From: Nitrososphaerota archaeon
GTDB taxonomy: Archaea > Thermoproteota > Nitrososphaeria_A > Caldarchaeales > Calditenuaceae
Direction of reading: 5' to 3'
DNA: 64,000 nt
Assembly: GCA_041641295.1 (NCBI GenBank)
Contig: JBEPYO010000001.1
Location: 602,776 to 666,775 of the forward strand
In this document: piece after piece, positions 15,652 to 35,089 of the stretch
Numbering within the stretch: the first letter of the stretch is position 1
Layout: the number at the start of each line of letters is the position of its first letter
Translations under genes and position numbers: made by a program
The notes under the pieces: generated by a model
What the model was told of the DNA's origin: nothing
The model's database searches: none
What the model saw: the letters and a program-made list of their open reading frames with translations, nothing else

Positions 15652-15694
15652 TCTCTTTTCACCCCAATCTTGCTGGTGTCTCATTATATAAATG

Positions 15695-15786
15695 CGGGCC
15701 CGGTGGGACTCGAACCCACGGTTTCCGCGCCTTTAACGCTCTGCGGCTTAGGAGGCCGCCGCCTTATCCTTCTAGGCCACGGGCCC
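15695..15786 (-). tRNA. tRNA-Arg (CCU) with an ~18-nt insertion in the variable region, a putative non-canonical intron
   Basis: Hand-folded. The acceptor is GGGCCCG/CGGGCCC, the D-stem GCCU/AGGC, the anticodon stem GCGGC/GCCGC with loop CUCCUAA, and the T-arm GUGGG-UUCGAGU-CCCAC. Total length is 92 nt because 23 nt, not 5, separate the anticodon stem and T-stem. Confidence 0.7.
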
Positions 15787-19350: not shown

Positions 19351-19447
19351 GGGCCGGTAGATCAGCGGTAGATCGCCCGCCTCGCAAGCGGAGGCCTCGC
19401 TCCGCCGAGAACGCGGGAGGTCCCGGGTTCGAATCCCGGCCGGTCCA
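19351..19447 (+). tRNA. tRNA-Ala (CGC) with a ~25-nt intron at or next to the canonical 37/38 position
   Basis: Acceptor GGGCCGG/CCGGUCC with the G3:U70 Ala identity pair. The anticodon stem CCCGC pairs perfectly with GCGGG only across a 25-nt insert (19387-19411). The insert itself forms a GCGGAG/CTCCGC hairpin. Confidence 0.75.
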
Positions 19448-23899: not shown

Positions 23900-24505
23900 T
23901 TGAGGATGCCTAAAAAAGGCAGGAATGGAGCGAGCCCCAGAGGAGGGCGCCACAAGCTATCATATCTTGTAGCCCTCATCCCCGCGGCTGTCTTCGTGGG
24001 TCTTATCGTGTTCCTATTATCACAGCCCGCCGCTCAGCCGCCCATCACACAGGTATCCCCTACAGCCGAGAGAAAGGAGGCACCGGACTTCGTATTGAGA
24101 AAGCTCACCCCCAACGGCCTGAGCGATGAGACATTCACCCTTTCATCTGCCAGGGGTAGGGTGGTCTTCCTAGACTTCGCATGGTGGCGGTGCCCACATT
24201 GTAACAACATGGAGCCGGTGATTAAGGACCTCTACTCGGAGTTCAGCGGTCGAGGAGTCGTCTTCGTTACCGTGCTACTCGATGACATGCAGAGCAGTGT
24301 CTCGGATAGTGCCCGCTTCGTCGCCCAGCATGAAATTCCTTGGACGGCTCTCTGGGACGAGGGAGGGAGAGTTTTCAGCCGGTATGGAATAAGGGAGACC
24401 CCCACTTATGTCATAATAAACAGGGAGGGTAAGATTGTCACGGTCGTGAAGGGTGAGCAGCAAAGGCAGGTTCTCGCCGACATTTTGAGATCGGTTCTAG
24501 GGTGA
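23900..24505 (+). CDS. Membrane-anchored thioredoxin-fold thiol:disulfide oxidoreductase (CPHC)
   Basis: N-terminal TM helix and a WRCPHCNNMEP active site with redoxin-family features. Confidence 0.75.
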   Translation: MRMPKKGRNGASPRGGRHKLSYLVALIPAAVFVGLIVFLLSQPAAQPPITQVSPTAERKEAPDFVLRKLTPNGLSDETFTLSSARGRVVFLDFAWWRCPHCNNMEPVIKDLYSEFSGRGVVFVTVLLDDMQSSVSDSARFVAQHEIPWTALWDEGGRVFSRYGIRETPTYVIINREGKIVTVVKGEQQRQVLADILRSVLG

Positions 24506-24957
24506 TAGGTGGCTTGGGCCACTGGTCGCCTCCACGCATGGCGTACCTATCCTCAGCCATCCTCTCAGCCGCAGGTCTCCCCCTCTCGATCTATCTAGTC
24601 TCACCGGGCGAGCTCCCCCAGTTCTGCGAGGTTGGGAGCAGATTCTCCTGCGTGACGGTAATCCACAGCGAGTACTCCAGATTCATGGGCATACCTGTTG
24701 CAGCTGTTGGGGCTTTATGGTTTGGAGGGGCCCTAGCCCTGTCCTTGGCAGCGGTGGCTGGGCTCAGGGTTGGGAACATCCTCCTATACTGGTCGGTCCT
24801 AGGCGTTCTCGGCGCTCTGGCCCTACTCTTCGTCGAGATATTCATGATAGGGAGTATATGCCTGCTCTGCACCTTTGCGCACGCAGCAGGGGCAGGGATC
24901 TTTGCAGCAGCCTACCTAGCACATATCTGGACTCAGCCGCCCATAACCTCTGGGTAG
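24502..24957 (+). CDS. Vitamin K epoxide reductase (VKOR) family protein
   Basis: Loop cysteines FCEVGSRFSC, a TM-embedded CLLC active site and several TM helices. It overlaps the upstream Trx-like gene by 4 nt. Confidence 0.75.
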   Translation: MIGGLGHWSPPRMAYLSSAILSAAGLPLSIYLVSPGELPQFCEVGSRFSCVTVIHSEYSRFMGIPVAAVGALWFGGALALSLAAVAGLRVGNILLYWSVLGVLGALALLFVEIFMIGSICLLCTFAHAAGAGIFAAAYLAHIWTQPPITSG

Positions 24958-28597: not shown

Positions 28598-29179
28598 TTA
28601 ACCGCTTGGACGTGGCTCGGTTTTTCCAAGACTAAGGATCTGTGAGGGCCTGAGTACCGATACTCCAGTGACACCTCCGAGGACCTCTATTAGCACTATC
28701 CAGTCGGGGTTCTCGAGGTTCACTTTGCGGTCCACCCTGGCCGCTACCGCCTCTATCACCTCGCGGCTCGAGAGCTGCGTGTGCCGCTTCTCCACGACCA
28801 CCTTATACGTCGCATCAGGCGGTATCTTGTCCTTCAGCCGGTCTACAGTCGCGGCTATCTCCTCAATCTTGCTTTGGGCCACAAGCTCTACAGGTATCAG
28901 CCTCATGATGCCCTCCACCTTGATGGGCTCCTTGGCTGCAATCTCTCTAGCCCTCTCGACGACCTGGAATGGGTCTAGCCGAGTGTAGGCCGTTAAGACG
29001 CCCTGAATCTTGGTTATCTCCACCTGGGGGTTCTCGTCACCCATCTCGCCCAGGAGGCTTGATAGTGTTGCTACACCCAGGACCTCCTGCCCTCTAAGGG
29101 TTGTCGCTATCAAGTTGAATGGCCTGGTCATCCGGCTAGTAAAGGTGCGCGCAGGGACAAAAACATCTCTCACCACCAT
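28598..29179 (-). CDS. Hypothetical protein, possibly THUMP-like RNA-binding
   Basis: The IVLIEVLGGVTGVSV segment resembles a THUMP strand. The assignment is weak. Confidence 0.35.
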   Translation of the reverse strand: MVVRDVFVPARTFTSRMTRPFNLIATTLRGQEVLGVATLSSLLGEMGDENPQVEITKIQGVLTAYTRLDPFQVVERAREIAAKEPIKVEGIMRLIPVELVAQSKIEEIAATVDRLKDKIPPDATYKVVVEKRHTQLSSREVIEAVAARVDRKVNLENPDWIVLIEVLGGVTGVSVLRPSQILSLGKTEPRPSG

Positions 29180-29341
29180 TAGAGGGGTATCTCGGCTAAC
29201 CTCCTGCCTCGTAGAACGCCTGGCCAGTCGGGCAAACCCCCATCTAAGAGGCTTGCACTATCCAAAACCAGAAAAACCAGCACATACATTTAAACAAATA
29301 GACATCACGGCGAAAATAGTGTAACAAAATAAACCTATCAC

Positions 29342-29557
29342 ATGGGATTCCAGGCATTTACTAAGAACGGAGAGATAGAGCGTGATAATAGCACCGTCAG
29401 CGAGTTTTTGTCATGGGGTCAGAAACATGACCACTGGTTCTCTAAGAAGCATGATTGGTCTCCTTTGCTCAGGATTGAGGCTACGCTTGGCAAGAACTAT
29501 CTTATATTAAGGTGCATCCCAGACTTAGCCATAATACAACACCTACAACCATCCTAG
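29342..29557 (+). CDS. Small hypothetical ORF in a low-GC island
   Basis: TTTAAACA lies about 50 nt upstream. Composition is AT-rich. The call is uncertain. Confidence 0.25.
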   Translation: MGFQAFTKNGEIERDNSTVSEFLSWGQKHDHWFSKKHDWSPLLRIEATLGKNYLILRCIPDLAIIQHLQPS

Positions 29558-30175
29558 AAGGGCCTCCACTAGTGAACTAACGTTACTGCTGTTGCTGATG
29601 AGGATGGAGGGATGTGAATGATCTCCTTCGCGCTCCATCTTAAAGCCTACCTGAGGCGGGTCGAAGTAAGCGGGGTTTCTTACGACCCCTGTCTCTGTAG
29701 TAATCTTATCCAATCCAGCCATTTCCAAGGCCACGAAGAACTTGGAGGTAGCCCCACCTATCATAACTAGCTTCGCACCGCTTAAAGCAGCATTTCTAAG
29801 GAAGACAAGTAGCCTAGGATCACTCAAACTCTTCTCGAACCACTCGCCTCCGAATACGACCAACGTGTTAGCGCTCAGCGCCACATCTCCCGGAATATCT
29901 GCTAAAGATGTTATACGAGCCCCTCTAAATTCAAGCTCTTTAACAACTTCAGACGCCAACTTACCACCGCCTATATGAAGAACCATAAAATTACTTAAAT
30001 CGCGCTGCACGCTCCATCCTCCCGGTGTTTGAATACTCCGTGACCACATTGTTGATAGTAGAAAACTTGAAGATAATATAATGATTAATGCTGATAGTAC
30101 AATCAACCCCAACATAATCATGCTTTTTCTTTCTTTGATCGATAAAAGTTTCCTATCTACATGGATTATCATCAC
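29543..30175 (-). CDS. Membrane-anchored hypothetical protein (low-GC island)
   Basis: N-terminal TM helix followed by an extracytoplasmic domain. AT-rich codon usage. Confidence 0.45.
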   Translation of the reverse strand: MMIIHVDRKLLSIKERKSMIMLGLIVLSALIIILSSSFLLSTMWSRSIQTPGGWSVQRDLSNFMVLHIGGGKLASEVVKELEFRGARITSLADIPGDVALSANTLVVFGGEWFEKSLSDPRLLVFLRNAALSGAKLVMIGGATSKFFVALEMAGLDKITTETGVVRNPAYFDPPQVGFKMEREGDHSHPSILISNSSNVSSLVEALLGWL

Positions 30176-30551
30176 TAAGCTTGTATTGTCAACTTCTACT
30201 TAAGCTTAGTTCATATTCTCATTTAAGGTGGTTGTATCCGCGACAGGCCTGTTACCGAATGGGCTCTCTCATATGCGCTTACATTCTGGAGAGGATTATC
30301 AAGACGGCACCAATCTCTATCAGGCCTAATAAATTGACAAGTGTCCCGACACAGCCCACTTTCACGGTACTGAAGACTGCCTCATTTAAGATGTTGTCGC
30401 TAAAATGCTAACTATACAAAATATGAAGACTCTTAAAAAGGACTGTGATAGACTCCATCAGACCTTAAATGACCTCCCTTATATTTGGACACCACATACC
30501 AAAAAATAAAAGAAAGGTAAGTAATGCTTAGTATATGGAGGGTAGCGGTAT

Positions 30552-31562
30552 TTGAAAAACGTCACCCTCATTTTTGACGATAAATGTGCTATATGTCGGA
30601 GACTTGCCACTGATGTGAAAAAATATTCTTATGGGTTAATAAGGGCATTACCGCTTGACAGCGGCGAATCGAAAGAGTTGCTCCATAAACTATATGGTGA
30701 ACACCCTCCCAACAGCTTCTTTCTAATTCAGCAAGATGGAAGCTATATACAGGTGAGTTATGGTATCAGGGCAGCTTTTAAAATAGCTAGTCTGGTGGGT
30801 CTCAAGAATGCTGTGAGGCTTTTTGCATCTTATCTCGACTATCACAGGGTGCTCAGGAGGTCGTTGAGGTCAAACATATGCTGTAATAATGGAACTATAG
30901 CGATTAATGTGGCTAAACGTCGAACATTAAACTTCCTAATTAGGGGCGGGGTCTTATTAGCATTTTACGCATTGCTAGGGTCTTGGCTTATTCCCAAGAC
31001 TCTCGGAGAACAGCGGGAAAGACCTATAAGAATAATTGAGACAAGACGAGTAGCTGGTGAAGAAAAAAGGAATATCTTAGGGGGTGTCATCTCTGATAAT
31101 GACTTCCTAAATGCAATGCACTGGCTAATCAGAAATTCCTTCACGCCTCAGATCAATGACGCTAGCGTGGAGCATATTTTTGCCCAGGCTGGTGAGACAC
31201 AGCTGGTCTTTCTCAAAGTACAAATACCATTCAGAGGTGAGGGGGACCCCCAACTGCTCTTCATAAGAGGCATAGAGGGTCCGCTGAAGGATGAAAAAGT
31301 GGCTCTAGCGTCTTATATTTCTCCAGATGGCCACCAACACGGATTCGCGAGTAAAGATGGAATAACCAGAGAGGTTACCTATGGGAGCCATGATCCTCTA
31401 GGCTGCGGAATCTGCTTAGCCAGATGCGTGGTGCTCACTTGCTGGACATGTTGGATCGCATGCGCATATGCGTCTACGGGTGTAGGTGTTGCGCTTTGCC
31501 TCGTATGCACCCTAGTATCTTGTCCATTCTGTTTTACGGGGTGTTACTCGTACTGTCGGTAG
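30552..31562 (+). CDS. Fusion protein: N-terminal DCC-family (DUF393) thiol-disulfide oxidoreductase, a TM helix, a central domain and a 12-Cys hydrophobic C-terminal tail. TTG start.
   Basis: LIFDDKCAICRRLA is the DxxCxxC DCC motif. The C-terminus is LGCGICLARCVVLTCWTCWIACAYASTGVGVALCLVCTLVSCPFCFTGCYSYCR. The gene lies in a low-GC region. Confidence 0.6.
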   Translation: MKNVTLIFDDKCAICRRLATDVKKYSYGLIRALPLDSGESKELLHKLYGEHPPNSFFLIQQDGSYIQVSYGIRAAFKIASLVGLKNAVRLFASYLDYHRVLRRSLRSNICCNNGTIAINVAKRRTLNFLIRGGVLLAFYALLGSWLIPKTLGEQRERPIRIIETRRVAGEEKRNILGGVISDNDFLNAMHWLIRNSFTPQINDASVEHIFAQAGETQLVFLKVQIPFRGEGDPQLLFIRGIEGPLKDEKVALASYISPDGHQHGFASKDGITREVTYGSHDPLGCGICLARCVVLTCWTCWIACAYASTGVGVALCLVCTLVSCPFCFTGCYSYCR

Positions 31563-31583
31563 GTTGTCAAACCCTTTTGATAG

Positions 31584-31955
31584 GTGTTAGCGACCATGTC
31601 TATGGATTATGATTGGAAGAGAGCTAGGAGAATTGCAGTATATCACATAATGTTGGGATTGATGTTTTTAATACCTACTTTACTTGGTCCATTTGCTCTG
31701 CTCTTAAACTTAGACGTATATTGGCCTCGTGGTTGGTATTGGTTATATGTAGCTCCGCCGATATACGGGTCTATGGCAGTCCACAACTTCCTTATAGCTT
31801 ATGGTCTACGGAGGAAGAGGCCTTGGGCGTGGCGTGAGACGGCTCTCAAGGACCCAAGATGGTACGCCTCAAGACGCTCAATACTCTCGGCAATAGCAAT
31901 AACAATCATAATAGTTGTGTCAATTATAATATTATTTTTTTCATATGCGGGGTGA
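31584..31955 (+). CDS. Small polytopic membrane protein (low-GC island)
   Basis: Three predicted TM helices. It lies immediately downstream of the Cys-rich fusion gene. Confidence 0.45.
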   Translation: MLATMSMDYDWKRARRIAVYHIMLGLMFLIPTLLGPFALLLNLDVYWPRGWYWLYVAPPIYGSMAVHNFLIAYGLRRKRPWAWRETALKDPRWYASRRSILSAIAITIIIVVSIIILFFSYAG

Positions 31956-32613
31956 TGCTCTCACGTTCCAGCCCCTCACAACCTTGTAGACATACTTGAT
32001 GACCTTATCGTCGAAGGGCCTCCACTATTGTGGATGTGGATGACGCCATAGAACACTCTCTCATCTCTTCAGCAGTATATGAAATATGTATCATCCACCC
32101 ACCTCAGTCTCCTTGGCCTCTAATACTCCAGTGCAAACATCGCCCTCGTCGTCCCTCAGCTCAAACTCCTTCAGCTTGGCAATTCTCTCGGATAGCGGCT
32201 CATCAAACCTGACATAAGTCCGCCAGGGCCTATACCCTTTAGACGAATATTCCAACCACTCACGGTTGCTCGAATTGGGAGTAGTGGATATAAACGGTTG
32301 AGGCCCGACAGAACAGAACACCCCAGATCTAAACAACCAAAATCACTAATGAAGGGAATAATAAGAGAGTGAACAGGAGAATTAGGACAAGAAGGAAAAA
32401 TAGGGGAAGTTGGCCGGGCGGCACTCCACCAGAGAACCCGGAAGATCCAGGCAGCAGTGCTACGACCTAAGCTTGTTGGGGGTTAAAATCCTTATATCTG
32501 ATGGAAGAGTATTGGTATAGTCCACTTTGAGGACAGGGTTATAGAGATTCCCACACAAGCTAAGAAGTTAACAGTTAAATCCCTGGTTGTGTTGATATGA
32601 TTTAAGATGCCTC

Positions 32614-33180
32614 ATGAGTGAAGAATGGTGGCGTAGGAGGAGGTTCTTCCGGCCCTTCGAGTTCATCGATGAGATGATGAGGGAGTTTGAGCGCTGGTTT
32701 GAGGAGGAGTTTAGAAGGTTTGAGAGGGAGTGGCCCAAGGAGCTGGTGAGGGAGGTTAGGACCCCGACTGGGGTGCGGAGGGAGATAGGCCCGATAGTCT
32801 ATGGATACTCAATAACGATAGGCCCTGATGGGCGACCAGTCGTCAGGGAGTTCGGGAACGTCAGGCCGAGCAGGCGCGGAGAACTCCCAGCCCTCACCGT
32901 GGAGAGGGAGCCGCTAGTCGACATGATAGTCGAGGATGAGCAGATAAAAGTGGTAGCCGAGGTCCCAGGCGTCAGGAAGGAGGACATTAACCTGACTGTG
33001 CGCGACTCCAGACTCATCATCAAGGTTGACACAGAGACTAGGAAATATTACAAGGAGCTGGACCTGCCTGAGGAGGTTGAGCCCGAGAAGGCTAAGGCCA
33101 CTTATAACAACGGAGTCCTCGAGGTGGTTTTGCCCAAGAAGGGAGGCGGTCACCCGCCGAAGACCATAAAGGTCGAGTAG
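32614..33180 (+). CDS. Hsp20/alpha-crystallin small heat-shock protein
   Basis: Alpha-crystallin domain pattern (VDMIVEDEQIKVVAEVPGVRKEDINLTV...YNNGVLEVVLPK). Confidence 0.8.
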   Translation: MSEEWWRRRRFFRPFEFIDEMMREFERWFEEEFRRFEREWPKELVREVRTPTGVRREIGPIVYGYSITIGPDGRPVVREFGNVRPSRRGELPALTVEREPLVDMIVEDEQIKVVAEVPGVRKEDINLTVRDSRLIIKVDTETRKYYKELDLPEEVEPEKAKATYNNGVLEVVLPKKGGGHPPKTIKVE

Positions 33181-33551: not shown

Positions 33552-34025
33552 CTAACCCCGCAGCCCCACCCTCCTGATGGCGGCCTCGTTTATGATGCTT
33601 GAGGCTGCGAGCGCGATTGGGAGGGCTGCGATACCGGCCTCCACTAGCGGCTGCTGGCCTAGGAAGACTATGTGTGCTATTGCAAGTGCTGCGCCAATTC
33701 CCGCCGCTGAGAGGTTTCCCAAGGTCGAGGATGTGATGGAGAGTGCCAATGCTGCGAGGGTAGCAATCACGGCTAGGGGCCAGGGGAGAAGTCGCGCCAC
33801 GGTTATACTGGGATTCAGGATTATGAGGAGTAGATAGGACACCGCTATTATTGGAGGAATATACCCCAAGAGCGCCGGCCTAGTCCTCTTCTCCTCGCTC
33901 GCCACCATGACTAGGGTGAATCCGCTTCTACATGAGGGGCACTCGGCCTTCCATGCTTGGAGATAGACTTCATACCCGCAGTTTGTGCATCTGAAGAGCC
34001 GGAGCCTCTTGCCCACGAAATCCAC
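33552..34025 (-). CDS. Zinc-ribbon plus multi-TM hypothetical membrane protein
   Basis: CTNCG...CPSC ribbon followed by hydrophobic helices. Confidence 0.45.
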   Translation of the reverse strand: MDFVGKRLRLFRCTNCGYEVYLQAWKAECPSCRSGFTLVMVASEEKRTRPALLGYIPPIIAVSYLLLIILNPSITVARLLPWPLAVIATLAALALSITSSTLGNLSAAGIGAALAIAHIVFLGQQPLVEAGIAALPIALAASSIINEAAIRRVGLRG

Positions 34026-34069: not shown

Positions 34070-35089
34070 GTGATGGAGCCAGAAGCCGCTGACAGCCTAT
34101 ACGACATAGTTATAATCGGGTCCGGACCCGCCGGATACACCGCTGGTATATACGCCGCTAGAGCAAACCTCAAGACGGTTATAATAGCGGGAGTCACGCC
34201 GGGTGGACAGCTCATGTTAACAGGCGTAGTCGAGAATTTTCCCGGATTCCCTGACGGAGTCCAAGGGCCTGACTTGATGGAGAGCATGAGGAGGCAGGCA
34301 GAGAACGCCGGAGTGGAGATCGTATATGACGACGCGGTGGACGTGGATTTCAGCACCTATCCAAGGAAGATAATAACCTCTGATCGGACCTTCCTCGCCA
34401 AGGCCGTGATAATTGCGACTGGAGCGTCGCCGAAGTGGCTCGGGCTTGAGTCTGAGAAGCGCTTGCTAGGGCGCGGCGTATCCAGTTGTGCAACATGTGA
34501 CGGCCCGTTATTCAGGGGGGCGAAGTGTGCCGTCGTTGTTGGCGGCGGCGACTCTGCCATGGAGTATGCCCTCTTCCTATCCAAGCTAGTTGAGAAGGTG
34601 GTGGTTGTCCACAGGAGGGATAAGCTCCGGGCCTCGAAGATTATGCAGGAGAGGGCCCTCTCAAACCCGAAAATAGAGTTTGTGTGGAATAGCGTTGTAG
34701 TGGATGTGTTGGGGAGTGAGAGGGTTGAGGGGGTCAAGGTCAAGAACAAGCTGACGGGTGAGGAGAAGGTTATACCTTGCAACGCAGTGTTCGTCGCAAT
34801 AGGCCACGCGCCTAATACTGAGTTTCTGCGGGGTAAGTTGGAACTAGACGAGGAGGGATACATTAAACTGTATAATAACTTCGAGACGAGTGTTAAGGGT
34901 GTTTTCGCGGCTGGCGATGTCCACGATAAGAGGTATAGGCAGGCGATAACGGCTGCTGGTTTTGGATGCATGGCTGCGATGGAGGCGATAAGATTCATAG
35001 AGGAGGGACATCCAGAGAGGCTTGAGAAGGAGTATCGTGCTGGACGGGTAGAAGTGGTCTCCGGCTCTAACCCCTCAGAGCAATCTTAG
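34070..35089 (+). CDS. trxB: Thioredoxin-disulfide reductase
   Basis: Two FAD/NAD GxGxxG motifs and the CATCDG redox-active motif. Confidence 0.9.
   Translation: MMEPEAADSLYDIVIIGSGPAGYTAGIYAARANLKTVIIAGVTPGGQLMLTGVVENFPGFPDGVQGPDLMESMRRQAENAGVEIVYDDAVDVDFSTYPRKIITSDRTFLAKAVIIATGASPKWLGLESEKRLLGRGVSSCATCDGPLFRGAKCAVVVGGGDSAMEYALFLSKLVEKVVVVHRRDKLRASKIMQERALSNPKIEFVWNSVVVDVLGSERVEGVKVKNKLTGEEKVIPCNAVFVAIGHAPNTEFLRGKLELDEEGYIKLYNNFETSVKGVFAAGDVHDKRYRQAITAAGFGCMAAMEAIRFIEEGHPERLEKEYRAGRVEVVSGSNPSEQS

Follow-up and report, generated by a model that had tools for sequence, protein, structure and literature searches.

A candidate precursor of a cysteine-rich exported peptide, with a DCC-like redox domain ahead of an internal twin-arginine-like signal, on a small foreign island of a Caldarchaeales-like archaeon

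The DNA analysed here, hereafter the window, is a stretch of 64,000 nucleotides from a Nitrososphaerota archaeon of the Caldarchaeales (assembly GCA_041641295.1, contig JBEPYO010000001.1, positions 602,776 to 666,775 of the forward strand). Close to its middle, an open reading frame (ORF) of 336 amino acids (aa) joins a predicted thioredoxin-like domain to a C-terminal tail that is exceptionally rich in cysteine, and it is this gene, the protein family to which it belongs and the island on which it lies that concern us. An earlier note, drawn from the letters of the window, had described an ORF with a DxxCxxC motif, a transmembrane-like helix, a later domain and a tail of 12 cysteines. All of these are seen, and the gene and its parts can be set out as follows.

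30552..31562, + strand: gene for the 336-aa candidate precursor, comprising a DCC-like domain, an internal signal of the twin-arginine translocation (Tat) type, a middle domain and a cysteine-rich tail
30552..30866, + strand: DCC-like domain with a probable thioredoxin fold, aa 1-105 (sub-threshold match to PF04134, AlphaFold2 (AF2) model, conserved CxxC)
30585-30596, + strand: the CxxC, aa 12-15, inside the DCC-like domain
30879..30884, + strand: conserved pair of adjacent cysteines, aa 110-111, after the redox domain and before the twin-arginine (RR) motif
30915..30992, + strand: twin-arginine-like motif KRRTLNFL (aa 122-129) with a hydrophobic h-region to aa 147 (conservation of RRxF in the family)
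31020..31385, + strand: folded middle (pro-) domain, aa 157-278; one strand followed by two helices and a further six to seven strands in the AF2 model
31395..31559, + strand: hydrophobic tail with 12 cysteines, aa 282-336, the candidate mature peptide (cysteine count, alignment with the homologue P0021)

The ORF begins with a TTG codon, and the same 336-aa product is called by the annotations of both JGI and NCBI. The segment LIFDDKCAICRRLA (aa 6-19) holds C12 and C15, the cysteines of the CxxC, and with D9 they make up the motif D9-x-x-C12-x-x-C15. At the opposite end of the protein exactly 12 cysteines fall within the final 55 residues (positions 285, 288, 292, 297, 300, 304, 316, 319, 324, 327, 331 and 335); at the background frequency of cysteine in the long stop-free frames of the window (1.3%), about 0.7 would be expected in 55 aa. 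This density is unmatched elsewhere in the window in any frame, the runners-up having 9 and 8. Besides the very hydrophobic tail, a hydrophobicity scan detects a single helix, at aa ~128-147. The fusion of a DCC-like domain to a cysteine-rich tail is real and not the product of a frameshift or of assembly, because the gene is base-identical in two assemblies (a JGI metagenome contig and WUQR01000139.1, a 1.26-Mb contig of NCBI GCA_009889515.1) and because the same layout is found in ~37 homologues; the frameshift joining two genes that the note itself had feared is ruled against on the same grounds.

Proteins of the DCC family are typically stand-alone units, and the Pfam model has 113 positions. 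What the 336-aa protein, the query of our searches, shares with the DCC1-like/DUF393 proteins (PF04134; YuxK) is the N-terminal DxxCxxC and, by prediction, a thioredoxin-like alpha/beta fold of ~100 aa; it differs from them by 230 additional residues and by a Pfam score that, at 21 bits (E = 8.5e-4), does not reach the gathering score of 27.8. The domain is therefore best described, as a prediction, as DCC-like rather than as a member of the DCC family; the family assignment made in the note holds for the motif and fails for membership in Pfam. PF04134 is matched by 25 of 31 relatives at E <= 0.1 (best E = 8.5e-6), and in the family alignment C15 is invariant and C12 is kept in at least 90% of the sequences. 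AF2, given this alignment, models aa 1-105 as an alpha/beta domain with a predicted local distance difference test (pLDDT) score above 90. A Foldseek comparison of the domain with the PDB returns weak matches to thioredoxins, TrxP and Mrx1, with probabilities of up to 0.98 but E >= 0.05, and a sequence search of the PDB found no DCC structure. The Cys-Cys pair at aa 110-111 is invariant in the seven closest homologues, and at the corresponding position the haloarchaeal members carry a CxC. The sole other DCC fusion that we met is to an HTTM domain.

The hydrophobic helix that follows was present as described, yet it is probably not a plain transmembrane helix but the h-region of a conserved, internal, Tat-like signal. 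RRxF occurs in 28 of the 34 members that span the region, 105-115 aa past the CxxC and immediately ahead of a G/A-rich hydrophobic stretch (DRRRFLGL, ARRNFLRT and SRRAFTGA are examples from relatives), and several members show AxA or SAGC (lipobox-like) sites after the h-region. Weak matches to TIGR01409 were obtained for 7 of 31 members (best 16.5 bits, cutoff 16.7), and Pfam TAT_signal is matched by two members. Signals of Tat substrates are N-terminal, and the one predicted in the query begins at aa 122, behind a folded domain of 105 aa; a scan of the window revealed no further RR-type signal. Proteins pass through the Tat system in folded form, and their signal keeps its N-terminus in the cytoplasm (PMC3387779, PMC2689190). 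Such a signal would set both the topology and the export route of the 336-aa protein. In having an RR motif and an h-region that could stay as an N-in anchor, the query resembles Tat signal-anchor proteins such as the Rieske iron-sulfur subunit, whose N-terminus is weakly touched by the family profile (E ~0.3, not significant); Rieske proteins differ, however, in having no folded domain before the signal and in their defined Fe-S site.

The C-terminal half of the protein was modelled by AF2 in two independent runs, one with the family alignment and one with this half alone, which agree. The middle domain (aa 157-278) has a pLDDT of 75-96 in both, and the helix at aa 120-145 one of 52-66. No significant or credible structural match to the middle domain was found by Foldseek in the PDB; the domain is common to the query and to P0002, P0003, P0007, P0008, P0012, P0019, P0021 and P0028. 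Together, the middle domain and the tail form a module that recurs in P0021 (UZE92557.1, from a Methanosarcinales metagenome-assembled genome (MAG); L027:6001-6744), in which it comes after an ordinary (Sec-type) signal peptide and a pair of CxxCH motifs of the haem c type and in which several of the tail cysteines are in register. Because P0021 carries both parts behind an ordinary signal peptide, the module is predicted to be extracytoplasmic. The locus of P0021 also has two small membrane proteins, of 142 and 91 aa, downstream. The tail was found neither as a stand-alone peptide, for which the note had proposed to search, nor as an anchor on unrelated protein families, and P0021 is its only other carrier; the reading of the tail as a common archaeal anchor on ordinary proteins is not borne out. 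In its hydrophobicity, the tail of the query would allow two membrane segments. A tendency of its cysteines to lie on one helix face is weak (resultants 0.45 and 0.62, p ~0.05 for the second half), and we do not use it as evidence.

Searched exhaustively with phmmer, a set of 1.84 billion cluster representatives yielded 32 proteins at E <= 1e-3, and a profile search added five more, all haloarchaeal (Halosimplex salinum, Halorubellus litoreus and metagenomes), so that the family numbers ~37. Word-index searches, made with the whole protein, with the alignment of the family and with the C-terminal module, gave little beyond the query and members already known. The only two matches from a metagenome scan were rejected, being due to a chance peptide, PDGHQHGF, in an unrelated repeat protein; a viral scan with the query found nothing, and NCBIfam gave the query only a chance match to YgbI (14.6 bits against a 400-bit cutoff). 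In the source databases the members are named only 'hypothetical' or, for some of them at NCBI and JGI, 'DCC family'. The sequences share one plan: a DCC-like domain of ~100 aa, a short linker, a twin-arginine motif with its G/A-rich hydrophobic stretch, a variable spacer or domain and a cysteine-rich C-terminus, with 7-16 cysteines in the final 60 residues in 30 of the 32 members that are 200 aa or longer. Proteins with this layout make up a sparse family, known from Aigarchaeota-like archaea, from Haloarchaea and from further contigs of archaeal type; one member has TetR and GntR regulators of bacterial type around it.

The N-terminal module is common to the family, whereas the cysteine-rich ends cannot be aligned across subfamilies and are of at least six unrelated types. 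Neither the positions nor the spacing of the tail cysteines are conserved between subfamilies, and most tails are polar and knotted rather than hydrophobic. Polymorphic toxins, and the precursors of peptides made on the ribosome and modified after translation (RiPPs) that have enzyme-derived leaders (Nif11, NHLP), combine a conserved N-terminal delivery or leader module with interchangeable C-terminal 'warheads'. The present family likewise joins a conserved N-terminal module to varying C-terminal ones; it differs from these systems in retaining a catalytic CxxC and in an export that is apparently of the Tat type, where they use a peptidase-containing ATP-binding cassette (ABC) transporter or a secretion apparatus.

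A connection to known bacteriocins is provided by one member, P0027. Its aa 186-327 match NF033852, 'bacteriocin fulvocin C-related protein', over the full length of the model with 107.6 bits (cutoff 35); the whole module of fulvocin C (Myxococcus fulvus) sits there behind the same DCC-like and RR module. The 45-aa sequence that we take to be the mature, cysteine-rich fulvocin C peptide, and which we treat only as a lead, aligns with 48% identity to aa 288-324 of P0027, its extreme C-terminus. A second parallel is found among the microhalocins, whose larger precursors bear a Tat signal and are cleaved; in the precursor of halocin C8 the C-terminal 76 aa are the toxin and the membrane-associated N-terminal part gives immunity (PMC3387779; bioRxiv 10.64898/2026.07.27.741052). 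Like the query as we read it, this precursor, ProC8 of Natrinema, is the Tat-signal product of a single gene; its active product is a hydrophobic, cysteine-rich C-terminal peptide, of 76 aa in ProC8. Its N-terminal part stays with the membrane of the producer, and ABC transporters and regulators lie nearby, as they do at the family loci L023 and L029. The query has no sequence relation to ProC8, however; its Tat-like signal is internal, behind a redox domain of 110 aa, its immunity would presumably come from a separate small membrane protein, and its host is a thermophilic Caldarchaeales-like archaeon and not a haloarchaeon. We liken the query in its proposed working to the precursors of halocin C8 and fulvocin C, but it belongs to neither family. 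The kind of precursor that we propose is already known; the previously undescribed part is the delivery module, in which a redox domain stands ahead of an internal Tat-like signal. In the literature that we covered, which excluded Makarova et al. (2019, mBio 10:e00715-19), nothing was found that links DUF393/DCC to bacteriocins or to Tat.

The gene does not stand alone. It lies on a short segment inserted between two genes that are neighbours in relatives, with the following features.

29189..32613, no strand: low-GC insertion of 3.4 kb with three ORFs, between the THUMP and Hsp20 genes (delimited by homology breaks and GC)
29543..30175, - strand: divergent 210-aa ORF of the island, with an N-terminal transmembrane (TM) anchor and a domain of ~160 aa
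31584..31955, + strand: small membrane protein, 117-123 aa depending on the choice of start, candidate immunity or partner protein (adjacency, TM segments)
31956..32613, no strand: rest of the island on its right-hand side, where no ORF makes a convincing gene (short ORFs only)

DNA homology to the related loci L008, L009, L010 and L012 ends at ~29152-29188 and restarts at 32614-32620, and in L008, L010 and L012, which have no island, the THUMP and Hsp20 genes are adjacent. The GC content is 0.445 in the island and 0.557 in its flanks, and that of third codon positions (GC3) is 0.41-0.45 in the island genes against 0.62-0.75 in the flanking genes. Since relatives have THUMP and Hsp20 joined, homology breaks at both borders, and GC and GC3 are low, the 336-aa gene arrived on a small, foreign and recently acquired island, together with the 210-aa anchored protein and the 123-aa membrane protein. 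The flanking THUMP gene is 82-85% identical to its counterparts in Nitrososphaerota and Thermoproteota MAGs and in 'Archaeon HR02', and 62% identical to that of Candidatus Caldarchaeum subterraneum, from which the host is recognised as a Caldarchaeales-like (Aigarchaeota) archaeon. None of the three island proteins matches PHROG or PADLOC; the 210-aa ORF has no Pfam match either and is not conserved beside the homologues, and translations of the right-hand remainder show no relation to the island proteins. A 24-nt direct repeat (29551-29574 and 32007-32030, 88% identical, 2456 bp apart) was considered as the ends of the island and rejected, being internal to it; no remnant of a paralogue was found. 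At the same THUMP-Hsp20 site, a Nitrososphaerota MAG carries a different insert of ~1.6 kb (L009:6290-8001, JAVYLC010000011.1), whose overlapping and apparently frameshifted ORFs have LAGLIDADG-like motifs (VAGDGY, FDSEGS), and the intergenic site looks like an insertion hotspot. The JGI contig, Ga0394092_00069, stops at 32589, 25 bp short of the island's right border, where the NCBI assembly continues through; this contig break may reflect heterogeneity of the population for the island.

The membrane-protein ORF follows on the same strand, 22-40 bp past the stop of the 336-aa gene. Its 123-aa product was described in the earlier note as a 3-TM protein; it is a membrane protein, and the number is approximate, two TM segments being clear (aa 16-46 and 94-123) and a third, aromatic-rich segment (aa ~50-75) only weakly hydrophobic. 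Just ahead of the final TM segment (aa 95-123; 31866-31955) stands SRRSIL; it looks like a twin-arginine motif but is probably just a positive-inside flank, because nothing follows the helix. We compared the neighbourhoods of 10 loci, the window included. A small polytopic membrane protein adjoins the gene in six of them (the window, L003, L006/L007, L023, L024 and L027), and an ABC ATPase with an ABC-2 permease does so in three, namely L023 (Halosimplex), L026 (with the fulvocin-type member) and L029; a maturase-like enzyme was found beside the gene in none of the 10. At L023:4565-4963 and L024:5315-5698 (Halosimplex salinum and Halorubellus litoreus) a three-TM protein of 127-132 aa, with 41% identity between the two, lies directly upstream.

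On this evidence we favour, at a probability of about 0.5, the view that the gene encodes a single-chain, Tat-exported precursor of a cysteine-rich, membrane-active peptide, that is, a candidate archaeocin or bacteriocin. A bacteriocin-like, redox-matured cysteine peptide with an adjacent immunity candidate was among the suggestions of the earlier note, and it gains from the fulvocin module of P0027, from the ABC-2 and small membrane proteins of the neighbourhoods and from the foreign island. By this mechanism, the RR motif and h-region would insert via Tat with the N-terminus in and the C-terminus out, leaving the redox domain in the cytoplasm and exporting the middle domain and the tail. The CxxC domain may act in cis on the cysteines of its passenger, either forming their disulfides, which would be made before export because Tat exports only folded proteins, or keeping the toxin harmless inside the producer; so specific a role for the redox domain is a tentative proposal, with the balance against it. 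Outside the cell the tail would be freed by proteolysis, as halocin C8 and fulvocin C are, in the form of a heat-stable, disulfide-laced peptide that would attack the membranes of competitors, and the downstream 123-aa membrane protein, a candidate immunity factor, would shield the producer. We infer these steps by analogy, from the part played by the redox domain to the cleavage, the antimicrobial action and the protection of the producer; what the comparison shows is the layout and how it is conserved, the member with a bacteriocin module, the gene neighbourhoods and the island.

A number of results weigh against this view. The motif KRRTLNFL of the query is degenerate with respect to S/T-R-R-x-F-L-K, although an h-region follows it, and the query matches neither TIGR01409 nor Pfam TAT_signal; no recognisable signal-peptidase or tail-release site was found in it. 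Its tail (aa 279-336) is modelled with a pLDDT below 50, and two members of the family, P0019 and P0030, do not have a cysteine-rich end. The query has no match to NF033852, a profile of its middle domain and tail shows no similarity to the fulvocin module of P0027 (hhalign probability 0.4%), and TIGR04449 (halocin_C8_dom) has no match at E <= 1 among the query and the 37 members. Since the C-terminal module of the query is thus unlike both fulvocin and halocin C8, what ties it to bacteriocins in this proposal is the N-terminal module, which the family has in common, and its genomic setting. In that setting, the adjacent membrane proteins are mutually non-homologous, except for the haloarchaeal pair; this fits variable partners of variable toxins, but a conserved partner would have been stronger evidence.

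Other explanations must be set against the toxin precursor. The protein could instead be an exported, membrane-anchored surface protein without antagonistic function, serving in metal binding or sequestration, redox buffering or stabilisation of the envelope when hot, with the tail as a Tat-inserted anchor that is never released. A C-terminal transmembrane segment can hold Tat substrates in the membrane (PMC3387779). The two possible membrane segments of the query tail and the missing cleavage motif agree with this, as do the Zip and multicopper-oxidase genes near L003. Nonetheless, we think it quite unlikely: family tails are mostly polar and knotted, the spacing of their cysteines differs between subfamilies in a way contrary to a shared cofactor site, P0027 has a recognised bacteriocin module, ABC-2 transporters and variable small membrane proteins adjoin the genes, and a place on a foreign island points to an accessory trait. 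Much the same cysteines can be read as parts of a transmembrane thiol-redox relay in the manner of DsbD/CcdA, a suggestion also made in the note, in which the cytoplasmic CxxC would hand reducing or oxidising equivalents across the membrane to the cysteines outside. The conserved CxxC and the pair at aa 110-111 would indeed be on the cytoplasmic side with many cysteines on the other, and genes for VKOR, a thioredoxin-like protein and thioredoxin reductase occur within the same 15 kb; but known relays require intramembrane cysteines and the sole conserved membrane helix here has none, the outer cysteines are not conserved in position, and the VKOR and thioredoxin reductase genes are core genes outside the island, so that we consider the relay very improbable.

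It is about as improbable that the product is a RiPP precursor whose cysteines are cross-linked by a dedicated maturase, in the style of sactipeptides, ranthipeptides or lanthipeptides, with the DCC-like domain as an enzyme-derived leader comparable to Nif11 or NHLP. A long conserved N-terminal domain ahead of variable cysteine-rich C-termini is what such a precursor would have, and three members show weak matches (E ~0.02) to TIGR04117, the 'Cys-Xaa-Xaa-Xaa repeat radical SAM target'. These matches are, however, far below threshold and reflect cysteine-rich composition, neither the island nor the immediate surroundings of the family member at any of the 10 loci include a radical-SAM enzyme, LanM, LanB or other maturase, and a Tat-type signal is not the export route of such RiPPs. 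An artefact, whether a sequencing frameshift that joined two genes or an ORF decaying on a dead island, is hardly credible. It might be suspected from the metagenomic origin of the genome, the TTG start codon and the absence of a gene from the right third of the island; the agreement of two independent assemblies, the retention of the complete architecture in distant homologues and the confident AF2 models of two domains leave it effectively refuted already.

The toxin-precursor reading can be carried one step further, to a conjecture that we hold to be unlikely. The DCC-like domain and the internal RR signal may constitute a 'fold-then-export' cassette, in which a tethered oxidoreductase installs or holds back disulfides so that Tat accepts the passenger and in which the domain would later aid self-protection; such a cassette would have been reused for at least six unrelated families of cysteine-rich toxins in archaea and probably bacteria, and among these would be the first candidate archaeocin outside the Haloarchaea and Sulfolobales.

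Some neighbouring genes of the window deserve mention in their own right. About 6 kb upstream of the 336-aa gene, at 23906-24957 (L001:3355-4406), a thioredoxin/AhpC-like gene and a VKOR homologue lie side by side; they are a candidate extracytoplasmic pair for disulfide formation and could act on exported cysteine-rich proteins. The thioredoxin reductase at 34070-35089 is a core gene, because it is found in relatives without the island. At 33552-34025 (- strand), outside the island, is a gene for a 157-aa protein that has a rubredoxin-like zinc ribbon (CxxC...CxxC) at its N-terminus and is hydrophobic in its C-terminal half; it is kept in relatives at 67-79% identity. Farther away, Rfam detects a tRNA of 97 nt at 19351-19447 (+ strand) that ARAGORN did not report, and a tRNA-Arg(CCT) at 15694-15786 (- strand) is 93 nt long; these lengths suggest intron-containing archaeal tRNAs.

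According to a review of 2012 (PMC3387779), archaeocins had been identified only in halophiles and in Sulfolobus. The range of known archaeal conflict systems would grow by a candidate from a hot-spring, Caldarchaeales-like archaeon, in a family that extends to Haloarchaea and has a fulvocin C-type member, the latter in what looks like a bacterial setting. The haloarchaeal pair (L023 and L024) is the only case in which the adjacent membrane protein is conserved, and it offers a culturable host. Disulfide-rich proteins are awkward substrates for Tat, since they have to fold in a reducing cytoplasm, and a fused redox domain could solve this problem; the combination of redox domain and signal could then be reused for the secretion of disulfide-rich peptides. 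For the uncharacterised DCC/DUF393 fold itself, the family would provide a concrete substrate.

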